From a phage: DNA of 64,000 nucleotides. A program made the position numbers and the translations under genes. A model generated the notes under the pieces. It worked only from the letters and a program-made list of their open reading frames with translations, ran no database searches and was not told the origin of the DNA. The DNA lies in sequence record PZ583742.1; one strand, 5' to 3'. This document shows positions 448-43,077 of the stretch, piece after piece. Every line of letters starts with the position of its first letter. The stretch's first letter is position 1.

Positions 448-1041
448 ATGAATACTTTAAAGAAAATTGTTGAATTCATCCGCTCCAAACTGGGTACTGC
501 AATGGCAAAAAACCTGTCTATTGAAGACCAATATACTCAAGCGGCTTCTACCCTAATTGACAAGATTACTGAGCTCCAGACTGCCCATGTTAAGTCTGTT
601 AATGAAGAAAAACGCATCCGCGAGTTAGCGAATGAAAAAGACCAGCTTGCTTCTTCTAAAGAACGTGAAATTCGTAAACTGATTGCTGATGGTGCTGATG
701 TTCAAGTTCATGCTAAACTAGGTCTCCTGTATCGTCGCACTGCTAAACAACTTCGTAAGAAGGCAGATGATTATGTTGAAATGCGTAATGAAATTAAATT
801 GAAAGTTAAAGAGCTGGATGACTCTCGTCAGGAACTAGCTGTTAAACTGGAATACATCCGCGAAACCCGTAAGGTGTCTGCACTGGGTATTGCAACCGCA
901 GATGATGTTGTTGAAATCGCTGCATTGACTAAGATTGATATTGAAGACACTCTGATGCGTGTTGAAACCTTCAAAGGTCCACAGGTTGGTGTGGATACCA
1001 CATCCGCTGACATTGAAGAATACATCAATTCACTTAAGTAA
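448..1041 (+). CDS. coiled-coil protein (long amphipathic helices, PspA/IM30-like in character)
   Basis: 197 aa ORF, charged heptad-rich sequence; preceded by early-promoter-like GTTTAC..TAGTAT and RBS GAAGGAAA. Confidence 0.5.
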
Positions 1042-1083
1042 GATAAAGGGGGCTTTGCCCCCTAATTGGGAGAGGAGAATATT

Positions 1084-1638
1084 ATGAGCTTATATAATGA
1101 CCTTATATCAAATGTAGAATGGTTTGGCGGTAGTGGTCTTGCTACTGAAACTAATACAGTTCTTTATAGAATCCGTGGTGACTTGGGTTATTCCAATGAT
1201 TTCTTAAGAAGAACAACAAGTCGCGGCGATACTACCAAATTGCCTTTTATTTTTGCTTTAGCTGAAGACCTTTCTTTCGCAGATGCCTTGGAAATTATTG
1301 ATGTAAATCTGGGTATTCAACGAGTGGAATTCGGTGGGCTGAGTTATTCCGTGTATGCGTTAAATGACCCAGATGATTATAGGCAACTTATTAATGCGAA
1401 CGATGATGACCATTTGGTGTGTTATTTGATGTTGGAAAATGGTGACCACTTTGGAATGGTTGACCGCCGACCAACTTATACTGATATTAAAAATTATGAT
1501 AAAGATGAGCTTCTTGATTTGGCGGCTGAGTATACATTAGAGAGTCGTAAACGGAAACGGAAGCTTAATCGTTTTATTGCTGAATGTCGTGAATACGCTA
1601 AAGGGGTTCAAAATGCGAACGTTATATCTGCCAAGTAA
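1084..1638 (+). CDS. hypothetical protein
   Basis: ORF with RBS GGAGAGGAG 6 nt before ATG 1084; C-terminal FIAEC motif shared with neighbouring genes. Confidence 0.5.
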   Translation: MSLYNDLISNVEWFGGSGLATETNTVLYRIRGDLGYSNDFLRRTTSRGDTTKLPFIFALAEDLSFADALEIIDVNLGIQRVEFGGLSYSVYALNDPDDYRQLINANDDDHLVCYLMLENGDHFGMVDRRPTYTDIKNYDKDELLDLAAEYTLESRKRKRKLNRFIAECREYAKGVQNANVISAK

Positions 1639-1972
1639 ACCAGAAAAATTTGTATACGCAGACAAGATTGATAAAGACCTTATGCCTGCATTTGCAGGCC
1701 TGGTACTGTGTATCGTTGGAATTATAATGATGGTGGTTTGTGGGGATATGAATATTGTTAGTGTTAACATTGCATGGACACTAACAATTTTATCTCCTTT
1801 TATTACAGTCCTGATTATGCTATTGATAAATGTGTGGCATCAAAATCATAAGAATAAAGGATATCGCGGGCGAGTTAAAAAGTGGGAACAAAAATGTGTT
1901 TCCCTGCAAGAAGAGCACAAAATTAAATGTGCTGAAGAATTTATTAAGGAGGTTCGTAATGGAACGGCCTAG
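1613..1972 (+). CDS. small membrane protein
   Basis: ATG 1613 after AAAGGGG; hydrophobic core LVLCIVGIIMMVV..ILSPFITVLIMLLI; C-terminal EEFIKEV tail. Confidence 0.45.
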   Translation: MRTLYLPSKPEKFVYADKIDKDLMPAFAGLVLCIVGIIMMVVCGDMNIVSVNIAWTLTILSPFITVLIMLLINVWHQNHKNKGYRGRVKKWEQKCVSLQEEHKIKCAEEFIKEVRNGTA

Positions 1973-2312
1973 TCTTGCATCACATGTTTATCAATTGGCT
2001 GAATATGATATTGGTGCCAATTTATTATTAGGGATTGTCACCGCCATGCTTGGTGGTTTGGTTGGTCTGGTAATGACCACGGTTATGGCTGCAATCGAGG
2101 GAGTCATGCCTATTGAGATGGGTTTCTTTATGATAATCGCTCCGGCCGTTGTGTCTTATTTTATCCCGGTTGTGTATGATATCTGTCACACAAATGCCGT
2201 GAATGCTCCCAGCCGTAAGAGATATGCTTTGGCAATGGCTGAGTATAATAAGTTCCTAGACAAAACAAAACGTAATGACCTTGAAACCTTTATTAAGGAA
2301 TGTAAATCATGA
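1959..2312 (+). CDS. small membrane protein
   Basis: ATG 1959 after TAAGGAGG; two hydrophobic segments; C-terminal ETFIKEC tail. Confidence 0.45.
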   Translation: MERPSLASHVYQLAEYDIGANLLLGIVTAMLGGLVGLVMTTVMAAIEGVMPIEMGFFMIIAPAVVSYFIPVVYDICHTNAVNAPSRKRYALAMAEYNKFLDKTKRNDLETFIKECKS

Positions 2313-2599
2313 ATAAAATTGAAATTGCTATCCCCAAGTATTATGATGAGAAATCTGCAGAAAAAGCCATCTATTCTCTTCTAAATAAGACCTCTGAAAT
2401 TGAAAAACACTGTGAAGAAATCGCAGATGAATATGGCATCGAATTCAGCACTGGTGATTACGGCAGCGGCCGTACATATCACCCAGTCGGTTATGAATGT
2501 TCCGAATGGTTCGCTCACCATATTGAAAACAACGGCGGGCAAGTTGAAAACGGCATTGTTACTGTTGGTGCCTGGGTTTCATCTTCTGAGGTGTGCTAA
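2309..2599 (+). CDS. small protein, tandem paralogue family member 1 (C-terminal WVSSSEVC)
   Basis: ORF overlapping upstream stop (ATGA); conserved C-terminal G-W-V-S-S-S-x-C tail. Confidence 0.5.
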   Translation: MNKIEIAIPKYYDEKSAEKAIYSLLNKTSEIEKHCEEIADEYGIEFSTGDYGSGRTYHPVGYECSEWFAHHIENNGGQVENGIVTVGAWVSSSEVC

Positions 2600-2600
2600 T

Positions 2601-2882
2601 ATGATGAATGATTACCGTAAAAATAAAGAACTGGCTAACGCAGTAAATGATATCCATAAAGCTATTCGTCGTGCTGAGGAAATTGCAAACAAATATGAGA
2701 CTCATTTTAATATATACCCTGCTCGCGGTATGGGCGGTGACTATTATTCTCCTGGCGCCCTGAAAGCCGACCTTGCTCATTGGGAAGAACATGGCCATCC
2801 TGAATGGGCTATTGTTAATACTCATGACTATACAACTGACCTGGAAAAAGGCGGTTGGGTGTCCTCCTCTTCTGAATGTTAA
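2601..2882 (+). CDS. small protein, tandem paralogue family member 2 (C-terminal WVSSSSEC)
   Basis: ATG 2601 immediately after stop of previous gene; same C-terminal motif. Confidence 0.5.
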   Translation: MMNDYRKNKELANAVNDIHKAIRRAEEIANKYETHFNIYPARGMGGDYYSPGALKADLAHWEEHGHPEWAIVNTHDYTTDLEKGGWVSSSSEC

Positions 2883-2890
2883 GGAATTAT

Positions 2891-3088
2891 ATGTCTCGTG
2901 AATTAGATTGTGCAATCCGTACTGCCGCAGCAGCTATTGAAAACGTTATCCAGATTTGCAAAGAAGAACGCGAAGAAGCTGATATCTATATCGATGGTGT
3001 TCGTGACCTAGACCGACATATTACGCTTTATAATGGTTGTATTACTATTAGTGGTACCTCTTGGGTGTCCTCCTCTTACGAATGCTAA
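2891..3088 (+). CDS. small protein, tandem paralogue family member 3 (C-terminal WVSSSYEC)
   Basis: ATG 2891 preceded by AAGGAA; same C-terminal motif. Confidence 0.45.
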   Translation: MSRELDCAIRTAAAAIENVIQICKEEREEADIYIDGVRDLDRHITLYNGCITISGTSWVSSSYEC

Positions 3089-3097
3089 GGTTATAAA

Positions 3098-3316
3098 ATG
3101 ACTGCTAAAACTGTTAAAGAAATTGAAAAACAAATCCGTGCACTAATCTGTGAAGGTCTGACTGCGGCGGATGAAACCGGCGAACACTTCCACGCTGGCG
3201 GCGAAGAATATATTCCAGCTTCTAGTCCGGAATATAACGATTATGAATGGGTTCGTGACGAATATTGTATTCCAGAAGGTGAAGGTTTCTGGTTTAACTC
3301 CTCTATGTCTTGCTAA
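3098..3316 (+). CDS. small protein, tandem paralogue family member 4 (C-terminal WFNSSMSC)
   Basis: ORF with AAGG RBS; related C-terminal motif. Confidence 0.45.
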   Translation: MTAKTVKEIEKQIRALICEGLTAADETGEHFHAGGEEYIPASSPEYNDYEWVRDEYCIPEGEGFWFNSSMSC

Positions 3317-3325
3317 GGTGATAAA

Positions 3326-3559
3326 ATGACTACTACTGTTGAACATGGTGAATTAGAAAAAGCTGCCCTTGAACTGGCTGCATTGTATAAGAAAGTAAAA
3401 GATATGGCTAACGCTCAAGATTTCGGTATTGAGCTTGACGAATATGATGGCGAGGTTCGTCTCGAAGACTGGTTGTACAGCTCTTGCTACGGTGAAGACG
3501 CTGGTCGCACCTTTGTTGCTCAACCTGACGGTAAAATCTGGTACCCGAGTAGCTGCTAA
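3326..3559 (+). CDS. small protein, tandem paralogue family member 5 (C-terminal WYPSSC)
   Basis: ORF with AAGG RBS; related C-terminal motif. Confidence 0.45.
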   Translation: MTTTVEHGELEKAALELAALYKKVKDMANAQDFGIELDEYDGEVRLEDWLYSSCYGEDAGRTFVAQPDGKIWYPSSC

Positions 3560-3603
3560 AATTATCACAAGGATGTGATAGGAAAACTTATGTGCAGAAA
3601 TTT

Positions 3604-3635
3604 AGTGTACAAGTCTAAAGAAACGGAGTATCATT
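3604..3635 (+). promoter_or_regulatory. early promoter-like element TGTACA-N17-TATCAT
   Basis: One of at least 10 copies of the recurring motif (a)GTGTACA-N16/17-(T/C)AT(A/C/G)AT upstream of gene starts. Confidence 0.45.
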
Positions 3636-3662
3636 ATCTCGTCAACTAATGAGGAAAATATT

Positions 3663-3830
3663 ATGTATAATGTTCTTATTGTTTTTGTCACTCACCCGCA
3701 AGGTGGAGTAAGACAGAATACTTCTCAAGTGGTTCAATTTTCTTCACTAGAGGCCGCCAATCTTGCTGCTTCACGAATTGAAGCGAAAAAATCGGCACTT
3801 GGAAAATATGAAGTAACTCGTCTTTACTAA
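3663..3830 (+). CDS. small hypothetical protein (55 aa)
   Basis: Short ORF flanked by repeated RBS module AATGAGGAAAATATTATG; below ORF-track size cutoff. Confidence 0.3.
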   Translation: MYNVLIVFVTHPQGGVRQNTSQVVQFSSLEAANLAASRIEAKKSALGKYEVTRLY

Positions 3831-3843
3831 TGAGGAAAATATT

Positions 3844-4803
3844 ATGATGTTAGTTATTGGTTCTCGTGCATTACATAACGCTGGTCTGATTGAAAGTCAG
3901 AAAATTGAAAACTCTGATTGGGACTTCATCGCTGACCAGGTCTCATGGAACCACTTTAAAGCACGTATGTTCGGTGCTCATGTTCCTGTGGATAACCCTG
4001 ATGTCCAAGCTTTTAAATGTATGTACAATGGCAAAGAAACCTATTTTGAAGCTTATATTGTCCGTGCCCTGACCAACGTACGAGAAATTACTGGCGAGCT
4101 TCAAGACGAAGATTTCACCTCAAGTTATCGTCTCCTGAAATATGCTGAAAATCATATTAAAAAAGATCGTCTTACAGGTTTTTACTGGGCGACTCCTGAT
4201 ATTTGTCTGGCAATTAAATTGTCTCATCGTTACCTGAAGAACAATCCATTCTTCTTGAAGACCATGAGTCATATTAATTACCTTCGCAATAAGGGTGTTG
4301 TTCTTAATGATGAACTACAAAAAATCATGCTGCAACGTCAGGCAGAAACACTGTCATACAGTCACCCTAAACTAGACGTGGGCAAGAAAACTTTCTTTAA
4401 TGATACAATCTATACCCTTGACCATGACTCCATCCACGAGGCTGTGGCGCTTGCTGATAAGCCTGCATATAAGTTCTATATGAAGGATGATTCAGAAGTC
4501 ATGACCTCGCGTGAAAAATTTGAAGCGCTCCCTGATGTTATTAAACTGGCAGGGGTTTATGAAGAAGCATGTGTGCTCGCTCTGGAGCGTTCGCAGGTTC
4601 CTAATGAGTTCAATATCTCTCCATCTGTGAGCTTCCATATTGCGCTGGAAAAAGTCTGCACCTCCATTACTTCTGGATGGTTCCGTGCCTTCGCATATGA
4701 AAATTACGGCAAAATTATAAGTATGTATAATGCTTTAGGTCATGACGATTATATTAAACGTTTTAAGGCTAACCAACATTTAATTCGTCCTTTCACAAAA
4801 TAA
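3844..4803 (+). CDS. hypothetical protein (319 aa), no T4 counterpart recognised
   Basis: Long ORF with RBS TGAGGAAAA before ATG. Confidence 0.55.
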   Translation: MMLVIGSRALHNAGLIESQKIENSDWDFIADQVSWNHFKARMFGAHVPVDNPDVQAFKCMYNGKETYFEAYIVRALTNVREITGELQDEDFTSSYRLLKYAENHIKKDRLTGFYWATPDICLAIKLSHRYLKNNPFFLKTMSHINYLRNKGVVLNDELQKIMLQRQAETLSYSHPKLDVGKKTFFNDTIYTLDHDSIHEAVALADKPAYKFYMKDDSEVMTSREKFEALPDVIKLAGVYEEACVLALERSQVPNEFNISPSVSFHIALEKVCTSITSGWFRAFAYENYGKIISMYNALGHDDYIKRFKANQHLIRPFTK

Positions 4804-4862
4804 GTGTGTACATCCAAATGAGGCTATGACATAATGGTCCCACAATCAATGAGGAAAATATC

Positions 4863-5549
4863 ATGAATAGTTCTAAAGTGTTTAATAGCCGAGCTCGTGC
4901 CGTAAGTGGTTTTGCTCACGATGTTCAAAACGATCAAATCAAAAATGAACCGATGTTCTTTAACTGTGATTTGAGTTTTGCTTGGGATAAAGGCGGCCCA
5001 ATCACTCGTAGTTTTATTGCCAATCTTCCGATTGATTGGACTAATGAAAATGTCGTATTCGATTCTCGTGTACATATGTTAATGCCTGGTTGGTATCCTG
5101 CTATCCCTGGGTATCACCATGATGATGTACCGCGCCCGGATATTCCGGTTGGTCAACACTTTATTACTGCAGGGCAACCTGATTATGATAATCCTCGTTA
5201 CCATTCTGAACATATTCTCGGTCTTGTTAACGCTGATGTGTGTCCTACTTATTTTGCAACCGGAACTGCCCAATTTAGTCAGATTCCTGAAGGCGAACTT
5301 ATCTATCGCCAGTGGCATAAAGAAGTTCTGGAAAAAATTGAGTCCAATGAATTAACCAAGTGGGATGCTCCTGACCGCACGTTGCTCCAGTTTGATTGGC
5401 AGACATGGCATACAGGTTCTCGTGCAGTAAGTAACGGTTGGCGCTGGTTTGGTCGTGTGTCTCGTAATACCGACCGTGTTAAAAAGATTACAAATGAAAT
5501 CCGCGTTAATGCTCAAGTATATCTGGAATTCCCTATGGAGGGCTGGTAA
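4863..5549 (+). CDS. hypothetical protein (228 aa)
   Basis: Long ORF with RBS TGAGGAAAA; no recognised motif. Confidence 0.55.
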   Translation: MNSSKVFNSRARAVSGFAHDVQNDQIKNEPMFFNCDLSFAWDKGGPITRSFIANLPIDWTNENVVFDSRVHMLMPGWYPAIPGYHHDDVPRPDIPVGQHFITAGQPDYDNPRYHSEHILGLVNADVCPTYFATGTAQFSQIPEGELIYRQWHKEVLEKIESNELTKWDAPDRTLLQFDWQTWHTGSRAVSNGWRWFGRVSRNTDRVKKITNEIRVNAQVYLEFPMEGW

Positions 5550-6136
5550 TGGCCCTTTATGAACCCGGGTGCATGGGTGTTGATGTAAACTTCATCCGCC
5601 GGGCAGAAAATGCGGGTATAATTGTATCAAGAGACGAATTTATGATTACCAAAAAATATTGGGCGAACCTTGATGATGGTGATGAAGGAATCAAGGTGGA
5701 AAATGTTGATTGGTCGCGATGCAATCGTCATGTGAAAGAGCTTTTAATTAAGGAATATAAAATGGGATACATCATTAATGGGCATCAACCAGAACCACTC
5801 AAAGAACAGACACCCGACCCATTAATTTCTTATAGCAAGAAATATGGATTTCGTACCTGGAGTGATGAATTTGATAAATTAATTTGTTCCAGGTTTTATG
5901 CCTGGGCTGGAATCTTATTTTTACCATTCCTGTGGTTTTTCCTGACAGGTAAAAATGAAGCACCTGTAGCTGTAATGGGCGCGTGCTTTTCTACTGCTCT
6001 TGCTGGACTTATTGCATCATTTTTATGGACTATGGTTATTGAAGTGCCTTTTCGTATTTCTAAAGTTAAAAAGGTGTACGACGATATCACTAAGAAAAAT
6101 ACATTGAACTCTTTTATTGAGGAATGCCGTAAATGA
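5549..6136 (+). CDS. membrane protein
   Basis: ATG overlaps upstream stop (TAATG); C-terminal hydrophobic segments; C-terminal SFIEEC tail. Confidence 0.5.
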   Translation: MALYEPGCMGVDVNFIRRAENAGIIVSRDEFMITKKYWANLDDGDEGIKVENVDWSRCNRHVKELLIKEYKMGYIINGHQPEPLKEQTPDPLISYSKKYGFRTWSDEFDKLICSRFYAWAGILFLPFLWFFLTGKNEAPVAVMGACFSTALAGLIASFLWTMVIEVPFRISKVKKVYDDITKKNTLNSFIEECRK

Positions 6137-6369
6137 GTATTGCGATTTATATTAAATCTGAGTCATGTGATTCTTATCTGTATTCCTATGATACAGGCAC
6201 ATCAGAAGAGAAAATCAAAGAAGATTTAGAAAGTGATTTGGATATGTTCCGACCGATTTCTGAATACAGAATTCAAACTTCTGATAGTGAAAGCCCTTCA
6301 TTGGAAAATAGACTTGAATTTTTAATGAGTGATATTTTTAACCAATCATGGAAACGTGACGATGAGTAA
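6133..6369 (+). CDS. small acidic protein
   Basis: ORF overlapping upstream stop; RBS GAGGAA. Confidence 0.4.
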   Translation: MSIAIYIKSESCDSYLYSYDTGTSEEKIKEDLESDLDMFRPISEYRIQTSDSESPSLENRLEFLMSDIFNQSWKRDDE

Positions 6370-6820
6370 GAAAAACAAGGTGAAAGAATTATCGGCTGGC
6401 ATTATTTTCATGACTGAAGATAAAGAGTTATTCATGGGTCGTGTGACCGGTTCTCGTAAACCAGGTATGCCAGCACACAAATGGGACATCCCTAAGGGTC
6501 ATGTGGAAGCTGGTGAATCCCCAATTGAAGCGGCTATTCGTGAAACCGAAGAAGAAACTGGGTTTACCCAATACGACCCGGCATTCTTAAAAGACCTCGG
6601 TGAGTTCCGTTATTCAGATAACAAAAACCTTCACCTGTTTTTGTATACGGTTCCTGTCGAGCATGAGCAATTCAGACACAGTAAATGCTCTGCCTATCAT
6701 ACCTTCCCGGATGGCAGTTCGGTCCCAGAGTTTGATGCATTTGCTCTGATTAAACCGAGCCAATGGCAGTACGTGATGGGCAAATCGATGTACAAGGTAA
6801 TGACTCAAATTTTCGGATAA
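6362..6820 (+). CDS. nudE: Nudix hydrolase
   Basis: Nudix box G-x5-E-x7-RETEEETG (GHVEAGESPIEAAIRETEEETG); position immediately upstream of lysozyme gene as in T4. Confidence 0.8.
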   Translation: MSKKNKVKELSAGIIFMTEDKELFMGRVTGSRKPGMPAHKWDIPKGHVEAGESPIEAAIRETEEETGFTQYDPAFLKDLGEFRYSDNKNLHLFLYTVPVEHEQFRHSKCSAYHTFPDGSSVPEFDAFALIKPSQWQYVMGKSMYKVMTQIFG

Positions 6821-6846: not shown

Positions 6847-7341
6847 ATGAATATATTCGAAATGTTACGTATAGATGAAGGTTGTAAGTTGGATTTGTAT
6901 AAAGATACTGAAGGCTATTGGACCATTGGTATCGGGCAACTGATAACTAAGAACCCATCGAAAGATGTTGCTCGCGCCGAGCTCGACAAGCTTATGGGTC
7001 GCGTCTGTAATGGTCGCATAACCCAGCACGAAGCTGAAACATTGTTTAATCGTTCGGTCGAAAAAGCTAAAGCCGGAATCTTGAGGCATCCTGTCTTAAA
7101 ACCTGTTTATGATGTACTGGATGAAGTTCGTCGTTGTGCGCTCATTAATATGGTATTCCAGATGGGTGTTGCCGGGGTAGCTGGTTTTCCTAAGGGTATG
7201 CGACTGCTGAAGGCTAAATCATGGGAAGCTGCTGCTAAGGAACTGGCTGACTCAAGATGGTATAAAGTCCAGACTCCGAATAGGGCAAAACGAGTTATCG
7301 AAACTTTCCGTACTGGAACTTTTGACGCATACAAAAGGTAA
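6847..7341 (+). CDS. e: T4-type lysozyme (endolysin)
   Basis: [51 protein letters not shown] matches T4 lysozyme along its length. Confidence 0.95.
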
Positions 7342-7344
7342 AAT

Positions 7345-7614
7345 ATGAAAACGTATCAAGAATTTTTGGCTGAATCTGTATTAAATGAATCAGATGAAAG
7401 CCGCATGGCATTTTTAGCTAAGAAAGAAGGCTTTGAGTTTACTTCTATTAAAAAAGTTAATGGAACTTCATTTAAAGTTGGTGATTGGACCTTTGGTAAC
7501 AAAGGAAGTGGCCAGTGGCAAATTGTAGATAAATCTGGTAAAGAAGTGGATTATTTGTTTAATCAGAAATTGGGTGATATCGCTAAACTTATGGGTCAAT
7601 ACTCTAAGAAATGA
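7345..7614 (+). CDS. internal protein (IP) with capsid-targeting sequence
   Basis: N-terminus MKTYQEFLAE matches T4 internal-protein capsid-targeting sequence with L-x-E protease site; sits between e and denV where T4 has ipIII/ipII. Confidence 0.65.
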   Translation: MKTYQEFLAESVLNESDESRMAFLAKKEGFEFTSIKKVNGTSFKVGDWTFGNKGSGQWQIVDKSGKEVDYLFNQKLGDIAKLMGQYSKK

Positions 7615-12504: not shown

Positions 12505-13077
12505 ATGGCGAGTTTAATTTATCATTACGCAGCAATGAATGCAGGCAAAACAGCTTCATTGCTGACTGCAGCTTATTCCTATAAAGAGCGTGGAATGAGT
12601 GTGCTTTTGCTAAAACCTGTTATTGATAATCGGGACTCGGAATCTGAAATCAAATCACGTATTGGTATTAGCCAGGAAGCAAACCTGGTAACGGCCGACA
12701 TGAACCTGTTTGAATTCTATAAATGGGCCGAGTCTCAAAAGGATATCCATTGTGTCCTGGTCGATGAAGCTCAATTTTTGTTACCAGAGCAAATTGACCA
12801 GTTAGCTCAAGTGGTTGATAATTACAATATCCCCGTTATGTGTTACGGGTTAAGAACAGATTTTCGGGGTCAATTATTTCCCGGTTCAGCCAGACTTCTG
12901 GCTATTTCGGATAAACTGGTTGAATTAAAGGGCGTCTGTCATTGCGGCCGGAAAGCAACCATGACCGCGCGAGTAATCGACGGTGCTGCTGTAAAGGACG
13001 GCGAGCAAGTGTTAGTCGGTGGGAATGAATCGTACGTATCTTTATGCAGGAAACATTGGCTCGAATTAACAAGCTGA
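12505..13077 (+). CDS. tk: thymidine kinase
   Basis: P-loop NAGKTASLL, VDEAQF, C-terminal zinc motif CHCGRKA..C; typical TK1-family layout. Confidence 0.9.
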   Translation: MASLIYHYAAMNAGKTASLLTAAYSYKERGMSVLLLKPVIDNRDSESEIKSRIGISQEANLVTADMNLFEFYKWAESQKDIHCVLVDEAQFLLPEQIDQLAQVVDNYNIPVMCYGLRTDFRGQLFPGSARLLAISDKLVELKGVCHCGRKATMTARVIDGAAVKDGEQVLVGGNESYVSLCRKHWLELTS

Positions 13078-40362: not shown

Positions 40363-43077
40363 ATGCAAGAATTTTATTTAACTATCGAACAAATCGGTGA
40401 CAATCTGCTTGAACGATACATTGACAAGAACGGTCATGAACGTGTTCGTGAAATCCCTTATGCTCCATGCTTGTTTATGCACGCCCGGGAAGGCCAGGCT
40501 GCAAAGTATACAGACATCTATAATAAAGGTTGTGTGAAAAAAGAATTCGATTCCATGCGTGATGCATCCCAGTGGATGAAGCGAATGAATGACATGGGCC
40601 TCGAAGTTATGGGTATGGATGACTTTAAACTCGCATACTTGTCCGACCGTTACCCACACGAAATCAAATATGATTCAAGTAAAATCCGTGTTGCTAACTT
40701 CGATATCGAGGTGACATCTCCTGATGGGTTCCCTGAACCGTCTGAAGCACGTCACCCTATTGATGCCCTGACGCACTATGATTCGGTAGACGATAAATTC
40801 TATGTCTTTGACCTTTTGGGCTCACCATACGCCACTGTGGAGCAATGGTCTATTGATATTGCTGCTAAGCTGCAGGAAGACGGTGGTGATGAAGTCCCTG
40901 AAGAAATCCTGGAAAAAATTGTTTATATGGCTTTCGATTCAGAAGAAGAAATGCTCCAGCAGTATTTGGTATTCTGGAACGAGAAAACTCCGGTTATGTT
41001 AACCGGTTGGAACATCGAGAAGTTTGATATTCCATATATCTACAACCGTCTTAAAAATGTATTTGGTGAAGCTACGGCAAAACGTCTGAGCCCACATCGT
41101 CGTACAAAAGTTAAGGTCATTAACAACGGCTTTGGTGAAGAACAAGAAATCATTCAGATTCTGGGTATCTCTGTTCTGGATTATCTGGACCTGTATAAAA
41201 AGTTCAGCTTCACAAACCAACCGTCTTATTCGTTGGATTATGTTGCGGAATCTGAACTGGGTGTTGGTAAACTCCCGTATGATGGTCCGATTTCTAAACT
41301 GCGTGAATCAAATCACCAGCGGTATATTTCTTATAACATCATCGACGTTTATCGTGTTGTGCAGATTGACCGTAAGCGGCAGTTTATTAACCTGAGTCAG
41401 TCAATGGGTTATTACGCAAAAATGCAGATTCAGTCTGTATTCAGCCCAATCAAAACTTGGGATGCGATTATCTTTAACAGCCTGAAGACTCAAAACAAAG
41501 TCATTCCGGAAACCAAATCGCATGTTCGTCAATCGTTCCCTGGTGCATTTGTTAAGGAACCTATTCCGAACGCGTACAAATATGTGATGAGCTGTGACTT
41601 AACATCTCTGTATCCAAGCATCATCCGACAGATTAATATCAGTCCAGAAACGATTGCCGGTTCATTTGCCCCAGCGCCGATGTATGAATACATCGCAGGA
41701 ACTGCTGACCGTCCATCTGATACATTTAGTTGTGCTCCAAATGGTATGATGTATTTTAAAGATGTTGCGGGTATTATTCCGACAGAAGTCACCAAGGTGT
41801 TTAATCAGCGTAAAGAGCACAAAGGCTATATGCTTGCGGCTCAACGTAATGGTGAACTGATTAAGGAAGCTCTGCGTAATCCAGGAACTGGCACAACCGA
41901 ACCAGAAGTTGATTATCGTCATGACTTTGATGACAATATGAAAACGGCCCTGCATGGTCTGAATCAAACAGTCCTGAATGGTATGTTGTACAAAGCGCAG
42001 ATGGAAGAAGTTGCAGGCATGACCGCACAGATTAACCGTAAACTGCTTATCAACAGTTGTTATGGCGCTCTGGGCAATATCTGGTTCCGTTACTTTGACC
42101 TGCGAAATGCAACCGCGATTACATCTTTCGGACAACTTGCATTGCAGTGGATTGAGCGTAAAGTTAACGAATACTTCGATAGTGTCTGTGGGACAAGCGG
42201 CGAAACTTATGTGTTCTATGGCGATACTGACTCCATTTATATCCAGTGCGATAACCTGATTAAAAAGGTTGGTGGCGAATCTAAATTCCGTGATACAAAC
42301 CACCTGGTTGACTTCATGGACAAGTTTGCGAAAGACCGTCTGGAACCGGCAATCGATAAAGCTTTCCGTGAGCTGGCTGAATACATGAACAACAAACAGC
42401 ACCTTATGTTTATGGACCGTGAAGCGATTGCATGTCCTCCGCTGGGTTCTAAGGGTGTGGGTGGATTCTGGACGGCGAAGAAGCGTTATGCACTGAACGT
42501 GTACGATATGGAAGGCACACGATATGCTGTTCCGAAATTGAAAATCATGGGTCTGGAAACTCAAAAGTCGAGTACTCCAAAGGCATGTCAGAAAGCTCTG
42601 AAAGAATGTATCCGCCGTATGCTGCAAGAAGGTGAAGAATCTCTGCAGACATACTTCAAGGAATTCAATAAGGAATTTAATGAGCTTAACTACATGACCA
42701 TCGCAGGTGTATCATCGGTTAACAACATCCAGAAATATAATGAAGGCGGTTTCCCTGGATTTAAGTGCCCGGCTCATATCAAAGGTGTGCTTGCATATAT
42801 GCGTGCAACTAAAGGTCTGAAGACTGTTCCACAAATCATGGAAGGGGAAAAGGTGTATGTACTTCCTCTTAAAGTCGGTAACCCGTTTGGTGAAACCGTG
42901 ATTGCATGGCCATCTGGGATTGAACTCCCGATTGAAATCCGTGACCAGGTTCTGCAGTGGATGGACTACAACATACTGTTCCAGAAGACTTTTGTTAAGC
43001 CATTAACAGGTTTCTCTGAAGCTGCAAAGGTTGATTACGAAAAGAAAGCAACTCTTTTTGATATGTTTGACTTTTAA
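40363..43077 (+). CDS. 43: DNA polymerase gp43 (family B)
   Basis: 904 aa; N-terminal EFY..IE..G.N..ERYID.NG.ER.RE; exo motifs VANFDIEVT, YNIIDV; polymerase motifs SLYPSII, KLLINSCYGALG, YGDTDS. Confidence 0.97.
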   Translation: MQEFYLTIEQIGDNLLERYIDKNGHERVREIPYAPCLFMHAREGQAAKYTDIYNKGCVKKEFDSMRDASQWMKRMNDMGLEVMGMDDFKLAYLSDRYPHEIKYDSSKIRVANFDIEVTSPDGFPEPSEARHPIDALTHYDSVDDKFYVFDLLGSPYATVEQWSIDIAAKLQEDGGDEVPEEILEKIVYMAFDSEEEMLQQYLVFWNEKTPVMLTGWNIEKFDIPYIYNRLKNVFGEATAKRLSPHRRTKVKVINNGFGEEQEIIQILGISVLDYLDLYKKFSFTNQPSYSLDYVAESELGVGKLPYDGPISKLRESNHQRYISYNIIDVYRVVQIDRKRQFINLSQSMGYYAKMQIQSVFSPIKTWDAIIFNSLKTQNKVIPETKSHVRQSFPGAFVKEPIPNAYKYVMSCDLTSLYPSIIRQINISPETIAGSFAPAPMYEYIAGTADRPSDTFSCAPNGMMYFKDVAGIIPTEVTKVFNQRKEHKGYMLAAQRNGELIKEALRNPGTGTTEPEVDYRHDFDDNMKTALHGLNQTVLNGMLYKAQMEEVAGMTAQINRKLLINSCYGALGNIWFRYFDLRNATAITSFGQLALQWIERKVNEYFDSVCGTSGETYVFYGDTDSIYIQCDNLIKKVGGESKFRDTNHLVDFMDKFAKDRLEPAIDKAFRELAEYMNNKQHLMFMDREAIACPPLGSKGVGGFWTAKKRYALNVYDMEGTRYAVPKLKIMGLETQKSSTPKACQKALKECIRRMLQEGEESLQTYFKEFNKEFNELNYMTIAGVSSVNNIQKYNEGGFPGFKCPAHIKGVLAYMRATKGLKTVPQIMEGEKVYVLPLKVGNPFGETVIAWPSGIELPIEIRDQVLQWMDYNILFQKTFVKPLTGFSEAAKVDYEKKATLFDMFDF

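Follow-up and report, generated by a model that had tools for sequence, protein, structure and literature searches.

This study concerns a nine-residue peptide tail that recurs near the C-termini of proteins encoded just downstream of gene e.6 in a phage (sequence record PZ583742.1; the 64,000-nucleotide stretch that was analysed is called the window below), and several described systems invite comparison with it. In T4 and in bacterial operons, genes commonly have their Shine–Dalgarno (SD) sequence within the 3′ end of the gene before them, with stop and start codons overlapping as ATGA. T4 gp43, gp33 and gp55 carry C-terminal tails that bind the gp45 clamp, and the T4 capsid-targeting sequence, the N-terminal MKTYQEFIAE, is cut after its last residue by the gp21 prohead protease, which cleaves after L/I-x-E and for which the Glu is obligatory. 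Recurrent boundary elements of another kind are the PeSLs, which combine intergenic sigma-70-like promoters with terminator stem-loops (PMC2839356; PMC4122927). In bacteria, PspA homologues are typically encoded together with small membrane-protein partners (PspB/C, LiaI with LiaH, PspM; PMC11237479), and a broad survey of PSP systems makes no mention of viruses (PMC11237479). In the open-access literature, we found no description of the tail motif or of a phage-encoded PspA-like module, and nothing relevant on the T4 e.x genes. The kind of element described here is familiar, namely a short C-terminal docking motif shared by paralogous and unrelated proteins, and an SD sequence written into a gene end; this instance and its genomic setting are new.

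Over positions 1000-6400, the window is 89-94% identical to phages TH41, VR20 and SP18, which places the source phage among the T4-like phages of the Gaprivervirus/Dhakavirus group. Most products of the genes that directly follow e.6 carry the tail, a peptide motif, at or close to their C-terminus, and the SD sequence of the next gene is often overlaid on it; we propose that it probably acts as a docking peptide, and hold this account as a whole to be likely. The window holds four copies, in genes named through the annotated SP18 and T4 records:

1564..1590, + strand: tail L-N-R-F-I-A-E-C-R of the e.5-slot protein; F codon at 1573, no SD inside
1931..1957, + strand: tail A-E-E-F-I-K-E-V-R of e.4, in which V replaces C; F codon at 1940, K-E-V codons holding AAGGAGG
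2280..2306, + strand: tail L-E-T-F-I-K-E-C-K of the e.3-like protein; F codon at 2289, K-E codons holding AAGGA
6104..6130, + strand: tail L-N-S-F-I-E-E-C-R of e.2; F codon at 6113, E-E codons holding GAGGA

A preliminary description of this DNA had reported that the genes starting at 1084, 1613, 1959 and 5549 end with NRFIAEC, EEFIKEV, ETFIKEC and NSFIEEC. All four peptides are in frame in those genes, but the word "end" must be taken loosely: 16 residues follow the motif in 1084-1638, 5 in 1613-1972 and 2 each in 1959-2312 and 5549-6136. Across the six frames of the window, F-I-x-E-[CV] matches at these four places only; for the final 21 residues of ~121 crudely called genes, the amino-acid composition of the window predicts 0.047 matches against the four seen (Poisson P ~2e-7). 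The recurrence is real and far above chance.

The tail extends across a wide range of T4-like phages. We compared the e.6-to-e regions of the window, T4 and 11 further genera (Dhaka-, Mosig-, Jiaoda-, Kanagawa-, Winkler-, Biquarta-, Moon-, Ceceduo-, Slopek- and Pseudotevenvirus, with the unclassified SonariX), and these 13 phages of different genera, T4 included, hold 44 copies of a nine-residue motif with the general consensus φ-[E/D]-x-F-[I/V]-x-x-C-[R/K], in which φ is hydrophobic and the two residues before C are called x1 and x2 below. The T4 tails are ...EKFVKECREYVKAITIPSK (EKFVKECREY) in e.5, ...MKFVKESRCKSQS (MKFVKESR) in e.4 and ...KEFVIDCRKIK in e.3. In e.4-type proteins and in the "MIKT" family of proteins with two transmembrane segments (2-TM), V, I or M replaces C; a catalytic or metal-binding role of the Cys is unlikely for this reason. 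A search with the pattern [FW][IV]..C[RK] over six frames of 234 kb gave 49 matches, 34 of them in tails of + strand open reading frames (ORFs); one of these 34, at 41348, is spurious, being off-frame within a 904-aa ORF (40363-43077).

An independent sample consisted of 43 IMG/VR loci retrieved by a scan with an e.6 profile. There, a strict version of the tail occurs in 96 of the 415 ORFs within 4 kb downstream of e.6 and in none of the 390 within 4 kb upstream, and of the 42 loci that could be evaluated, 39 have a canonical tail on the first ORF after e.6. The exceptions are two Ceceduovirus loci with F-[IV]-N-Y-C-I and one locus with a frameshifted gene. Scans of IMG/VR with single proteins returned close relatives only. 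Two genomes of this collection have an e.5 split by a frameshift (L037, 4636-5251; L062, 4656-5179), which may reflect an assembly error or real decay.

First, it must be asked whether selection acts on the peptide or on the DNA that encodes it. The preliminary description had left this as a choice between a shared protein motif and a conserved junction used for translational coupling and recombination, and had stated that the DNA is tttattaaggaRtg in three copies, where it also supplies the SD of the next gene. That string matches the 2289 copy only; the 1940 copy reads tttattaaggaggt and the 6113 copy tttattgaggaatg, and the pattern TTTATTRAGGAR[GT] fits all three. The SD role is plausible by position at the three junctions. 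AAGGAGG (1946-1952) lies 6 nt 5′ of the ATG at 1959, AAGGA (2295-2299) 9 nt 5′ of the ATG at 2309, and GAGGA (6119-6123) 9 nt 5′ of the ATG at 6133, the latter two starts overlapping the stop as ATGA; an SD-like element thus stands 5-10 nt before the downstream start at each. The first gene is unlike the others, in that it has no such element in its tail and the next start, at 1613, is preceded by an SD of its own, AAAGGGG, and stands 40 nt away from the F codon.

On these grounds one could suppose a pure ribosome-binding-site (RBS) constraint: the tail DNA (TTATTAAGGA...) would be kept because it serves the next gene as SD and coupling signal, and the peptide would simply follow from it. At three of the four junctions in the window, the layout does resemble ordinary translational coupling, and among the 44 copies an SD-like tetramer occurs in the I-x-x-C codons of 15 of the 19 tails that have the next ATG at 17-23 nt from the F codon, as against 2 of the 25 that have it farther away (Fisher p = 3e-6). 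The SD is not, however, the conserved element of the tail: it occupies free codons when the start is suitably placed and is otherwise absent, and 23 of the 25 intact copies with a start more than 23 nt away have no SD in the motif. It also shifts as the start moves. With the next ATG at 26 nt, 4 of 5 copies use AGG for the Arg, which yields AGGA; with the ATG at 28 nt, the +1 codon is GGA.

The conservation of the tail likewise follows the protein. The information content is 4.06 bits for F, 3.59 for I/V, 3.20 for C and 3.44 for R/K, and falls to 1.25 and 1.64 at x1 and x2, the pair that corresponds to the AAGGAA highlighted in the preliminary description and that forms the SD; relative to F, 91% of copies have a hydrophobic residue at position -3 and 55% an acidic one at position -2. 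Each conserved residue is written with all of its synonymous codons (TTT 27 and TTC 15; TGC 18 and TGT 17; CGT, CGC, CGA, CGG, AGA and AGG for the Arg of the tail). F, I/V and R/K are conserved in both the near and the far group, and C is commoner in the far group (23/25). The tail is kept with the next start at a distance of 32-106 nt or across an intergenic gap; starts 55-106 nt off are found in Mineola (9886), avDM5, Aszh-1, SonariX (8879), KLB1 and Xman. Loss of the motif where no downstream gene needs an SD, which the preliminary description had named as the mark of an RBS constraint, is therefore not what is seen. Because the conserved residues persist through codon changes and distant starts, selection acts on the peptide, and the tail is under purifying selection as such. 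Because the SD appears only at the right distance from an ATG and in variable codons, the RBS is superimposed on those positions of a protein motif that are free to vary: as read from the 44 copies, the x-x codons or the Arg codon spell the SD of the next gene whenever its ATG sits at a suitable distance. A pure RBS constraint is already contradicted by these observations, and we give it hardly any credence.

Second, the junctions might be maintained as sites of recombination. Tail, SD and start would then form a repeated DNA cassette at which genes are deleted, duplicated or swapped whole, a coding analogue of the PeSLs, through which gene shuffling has been documented in T4-type phages (PMC2839356). 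The likeness is that short conserved sequences recur at gene boundaries of hyperplastic regions, and two of the mosaic breakpoints relative to Dhakaviruses, at 1616 and 6113, do fall at tail junctions. Against QL01, identity is 31-53% across the TM module of e.2 and 98% from the 45-nt comparison window that starts at 6114; in BLAST, the matching segment starts at 6113, where the e.2 tail has its F codon. The module (5790-6112; 12565-12893 in QL01, locus L014) has thus been swapped inside the gene, between a conserved N-terminal domain and the invariant tail. The second case is e.4. QL01 and VR5 lack exactly this gene, the left breakpoint lying at 1616, and the indel is flanked by an imperfect 16-nt direct repeat, AARGRGGTTCRWAATG, drawn from the e.5/e.4 and e.4/e.3 junctions (1600-1616 and 1946-1961).

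The repeated junction even extends into the next protein. The 2-TM paralogues have a common N-terminus, M-x-K-P-(S/D/L)-(L/K), which is found in the window (1613-1640 and 1959-1985), in proteins P0049, P0050 and P0053 and in T4 e.3/e.4, so that the entire junction, comprising tail, overlapping stop and start, and N-terminus, is repeated along the tandem array.

A recombination cassette should nevertheless show concerted evolution of its DNA, and none was found among the junctions: the identity of non-orthologous tail DNA is 0.520 within genomes versus 0.522 between genomes, third-position agreement is 0.56 in both comparisons, and paralogous junctions in the window are identical over at most 11 nt. 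Most other breakpoints of the region lie away from tails, and since recombinants with broken genes are removed by selection, gene ends should collect breakpoints anyway. Unlike a PeSL, the tail is an in-frame coding element conserved at the amino-acid level, a feature that the cassette leaves unexplained, and it contains neither promoter nor terminator. Our scan found no terminator-like sites at 1931-1957, 2280-2306 or 6104-6130, and the sole promoter-like match that overlaps a tail (2281-2310, 9/12) is within the expectation from shuffled sequence (20 found, 21.6 expected). We therefore consider the cassette improbable as the reason why the tail exists. Of the junction alternative in the preliminary description, the SD overlay and the two breakpoints survive, but neither coupling nor recombination is what maintains the motif; recombination is possibly a side effect of the junctions, and the two cases would fit tail junctions that, like PeSLs, offer convenient crossover points.

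Third, the proteins that bear the tail have to be considered, as their relationships bear directly on its origin. The carriers in the window are:

1084..1638, + strand: e.5-slot gene, soluble protein of 184 aa, phrog_8788 (PHROG match, hydropathy)
1613..1972, + strand: e.4, 2-TM membrane protein of 119 aa, phrog_2604, PF26873 (precomputed) (PHROG, SP18 comparison, hydropathy)
1959..2312, + strand: e.3-like gene, 2-TM membrane protein of 117 aa, phrog_2330 (PHROG, hydropathy; BLASTP versus T4 e.3, E = 1e-9)
5549..6136, + strand: e.2, 195 aa, phrog_2203, PF26896 (precomputed); N-terminal soluble domain, then 2-TM hairpin, then tail

The earlier count of three membrane proteins among the four agrees with hydropathy, which gives two hydrophobic segments in three of them and none in the protein of 1084-1638. 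A local Pfam search of the four window proteins gave nothing significant, and Pfam and PDB sequence searches with e.5 gave no matches.

Among the membrane proteins, kinship is detectable. The proteins of e.4 and the e.3-like gene match each other by BLASTP (E = 5e-5 over 84 residues) and by hhalign (88% probability over 81 columns), and on this sequence evidence the two genes are paralogues. The e.3-like protein matches e.2 over 36 C-terminal columns (hhalign, 76% probability), and PHROG cross-hits connect the phrog_2604, phrog_2330 and phrog_2203 families. With two hydrophobic segments, a basic C-terminal region and detectable homology between families, e.4, e.3 and e.2 can be treated as 2-TM paralogues. 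A profile of e.3 and e.4 searched against 1.84 billion proteins found 9 matches: one spurious repeat protein, one 42-residue fragment and seven tail-bearing proteins, of which two are representatives of the query family and five further relatives. By this search, the e.3/e.4 family is small and confined to these phages. The 2-TM genes e.4, e.3 and e.2 probably received their tail copies through tandem duplication.

Two side observations concern e.2. In the T4 reference (L013, NC_000866 67491-67960; reverse-complement coordinates 6041-6523), the e.2 frame contains two in-frame stops, TAG then TAA, beyond which it resumes with a well-conserved C-terminal part, ...IEMPWRLRRQQKIFDEKKYAQNLNNFITECRKLK and a stop codon, that abuts nudE; the interrupted gene could be a pseudogene, a strain-specific mutation or a case of read-through. 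The Tequatrovirus locus L037 lacks e.2, and e.3 there abuts nudE.

The e.5 slot is far more variable, with proteins of 154 to 326 aa that match seven different PHROGs. BLASTP of T4 e.5 against the protein of 1084-1638 aligns the last 15 residues only, that is, the tail. When 13 e.5-slot proteins are aligned, invariance is limited to M1 and two tail residues, F and C, which makes the tail the sole invariant feature besides M1 from T4 to Aeromonas and Slopekvirus phages. We had entertained the idea of non-homologous e.5 bodies, replaced as cassettes with the junction kept; it was dropped, as the alignment also holds common internal blocks (e.g., Y-S...N-D), and on the body homology in this alignment e.5 is now treated as one fast-evolving, very divergent family. 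A third class of carriers consists of small soluble proteins (IME523 9838, KM16 9943, SonariX 8879 and Mineola 9886). Stripped of their tails, the bodies form 22 BLAST clusters.

These relationships invite the suggestion that the tail is a relic without a function of its own, left over from duplication as the part of an ancestral 2-TM gene that evolves most slowly. The e.4/e.3-like paralogy, the match to e.2 and the PHROG cross-hits all speak for shared ancestry, and common descent would by itself place the tail on the 2-TM paralogues. It would not place it on e.5 and the small soluble proteins, which have no other similarity to the 2-TM proteins; the resemblance of e.5 to e.2 is confined to the 14-column tail, and even the match of e.4 to e.2 to the tail. 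Nor would a functionless remnant be expected to outlive the rest of the protein, as the tail does in the e.5 family with its invariant F and C. In e.2, moreover, the TM module exists in two unrelated versions and FI(E/K)ECRK is invariant beside both. A relic of this sort seems to us an improbable account of the tail. The e.5 and small soluble proteins may have obtained it by descent or by capture of a 3′ end.

The shape of the tail suggests what it could do instead. Hydrophobic residues at -3, 0, +1 and +4 follow an i, i+3, i+4, i+7 pattern and are succeeded by a basic residue, from which a two-turn amphipathic helix is predicted. The 2-TM proteins have a strongly basic stretch following TM2, and basic residues are missing from the loop that joins their two TM segments; this charge pattern, under the positive-inside rule, points to a cytoplasmic tail. 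An AlphaFold2 model of e.2 has helices at 105-132 and 140-194, the second of which extends from TM2 and closes with the tail. In the membrane proteins, the tail helix would thus end a long, basic cytoplasmic helix running on from TM2, and the same short helix would be borne by bodies without detectable relationship, namely the soluble e.5 products, the 2-TM membrane proteins and the small soluble carriers.

Helices of such shape can also act without a protein partner; the C-terminal helices of MinD and FtsA bind the inner leaflet. The tail might accordingly bind the inner leaflet or bundle with other tails, holding e.5 at the membrane, and the amphipathic pattern with its following basic residues, as well as the mixture of soluble and membrane proteins among the carriers, would suit that idea. 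Yet acidic residues, untypical of lipid-binding helices, are frequent in the motif (position -2 in 55%, x2 in 50%), and integral membrane proteins need no further targeting. Self-association fares no better, since two turns are short for a stable coiled coil and the residue pattern of the tail copies shows no heptad pattern continuing upstream. We judge membrane targeting or self-association to be very improbable, somewhat more so than the cassette or the relic.

The strings EFIAE of the capsid-targeting sequence and RFIAE, TFIKE and SFIEE of the tails look alike, and a gp21 protease site was considered. It was rejected because the Glu is not conserved (it stands at x2 in only 20 of the 44 copies) and the tail is C-terminal; its conserved C and R are, furthermore, absent from the capsid-targeting sequence. 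The window does contain an internal-protein-like gene at 7345-7614 with a capsid-targeting N-terminus, MKTYQEFLAE, whose resemblance to the xFIxE of the tail is superficial.

Closer in logic are the gp45-binding tails, where one short C-terminal peptide likewise stands on otherwise unrelated phage proteins, all of which bind a single partner, although the e-cluster tail differs from them in sequence and its carriers are membrane-associated early proteins. As the tail is found on unrelated bodies and is the best-conserved part of each, it is most likely a docking peptide. It would bring its carriers to one common partner at the cytoplasmic face of the inner membrane.

Who might that partner be? 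The gene immediately upstream, e.6, was found in 1111 phage records, and its product resembles PspA and Vipp1. An AlphaFold2 model of e.6 forms a helical hairpin (helices 2-80 and 86-147) with pLDDT >90 over approximately residues 30-130, and the best 12 matches of this model against the PDB by Foldseek are all Vipp1 or PspA (E 7.6e-4 to 0.05). The Pfam family PspA_IM30 matches weakly in 2 of 10 e.6 homologues (best E = 3.7e-4, under the curated cut-off), and an e.6 profile searched against PDB sequences gives Vipp1 matches that are collinear but non-significant (E ~0.5). The depositors of KLB1 recorded the same resemblance from HHpred. By these models and profiles, e.6 looks like a PspA/Vipp1-like coiled-coil protein of the ESCRT-III superfamily. 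The arrangement also recalls bacterial PspA and its partners, in that e.6 shares an early transcription unit with downstream genes for small membrane proteins whose C-terminal helices are predicted to lie in the cytoplasm. In contrast to the bacterial systems, the cluster is phage-encoded, its proteins have no sequence similarity to PspB, PspC or LiaI, and the tail also stands on soluble proteins. From its universal synteny and the bacterial analogy, e.6 would be the leading candidate for the partner of the tail, a proposal that we hold tentatively and with much more doubt than belief. Broader still, and slightly more doubtful, is the idea that T4-like phages carry a PspA/ESCRT-III-like membrane module, in which e.6 would form the polymer and e.5, e.4, e.3, e.2, their paralogues and some small soluble proteins would be interchangeable adaptors or anchors, docking through the tail on e.6 or on host PspA, the set being reshuffled at tail junctions.

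Several points weigh against these proposals. Many of the 44 tail copies are orthologues and so do not represent independent events, and common descent would account for the tail among the 2-TM paralogues without any special function. Confidence in the e.2 model is low, with a mean pLDDT of 59.7 and values of 61-80 across its last 60 residues. The e.6 model was built without an alignment and its Foldseek E-values are modest, the best being 7.6e-4; long helical hairpins readily attract Vipp1/PspA-type matches, and PspA_IM30 stays under threshold for most e.6 members. The link between the tail and e.6 as its partner comes from synteny and analogy alone.

The tail genes belong to a series of genes, all on the + strand, that runs from e.6 to the lysozyme gene e, and the region includes the following further features:

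448..1041, + strand: e.6; homologue labelled e.6 in the SP18 and T4 records
1047..1063, + strand: G+C-rich hairpin between e.6 and the e.5-slot gene; sequence read, with the stem found on the complementary strand by the terminator-like scan
2309-3559, + strand: five small tandem paralogues, phrog_899/4882, 65-96 aa
6133..6369, + strand: small acidic protein of 78 aa ending ...SWKRDDE, translationally coupled to e.2
6362-6820, + strand: nudE, by comparison with SP18 and T4
6847-7341, + strand: e (lysozyme), by comparison with SP18 and T4
377-405, 3606-3634 and 4807-4835: T4-type early-promoter-like sites, from a scan of the window

An equivalent hairpin lies 3′ of e.6 in T4, and the KLB1 record annotates a terminator at the corresponding site. 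The 78-aa acidic gene sits between the last tail-bearing membrane gene and nudE also in QL01, Mineola, LC53, KM16, SonariX and L052. The five paralogues at 2309-3559 all terminate in W-[VFY]-x-S-S-x-x-C followed by the stop (WVSSSEVC, WVSSSSEC, WVSSSYEC, WFNSSMSC and WYPSSC), and such ends are also found in QL01, KMB38, IME523, LC53, KM16, SonariX and L052. With its terminal Cys, this makes a second C-terminal motif that recurs within the cluster.

Finally, the tail gives a concrete handle on a classic set of genes of unknown function, T4 e.2-e.8. From T4 to Aeromonas and Slopekvirus phages, a nine-residue tag ties together otherwise unrelated early proteins encoded beside a PspA/Vipp1-like gene. 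It is also a clean example of dual coding, in which an RBS is written in the free positions of a protein motif and moves with the next start codon, and it cautions against reading conserved gene junctions as regulatory alone. If the tail is truly a docking peptide, its partner could open up the function of a cluster that probably acts on the host inner membrane.

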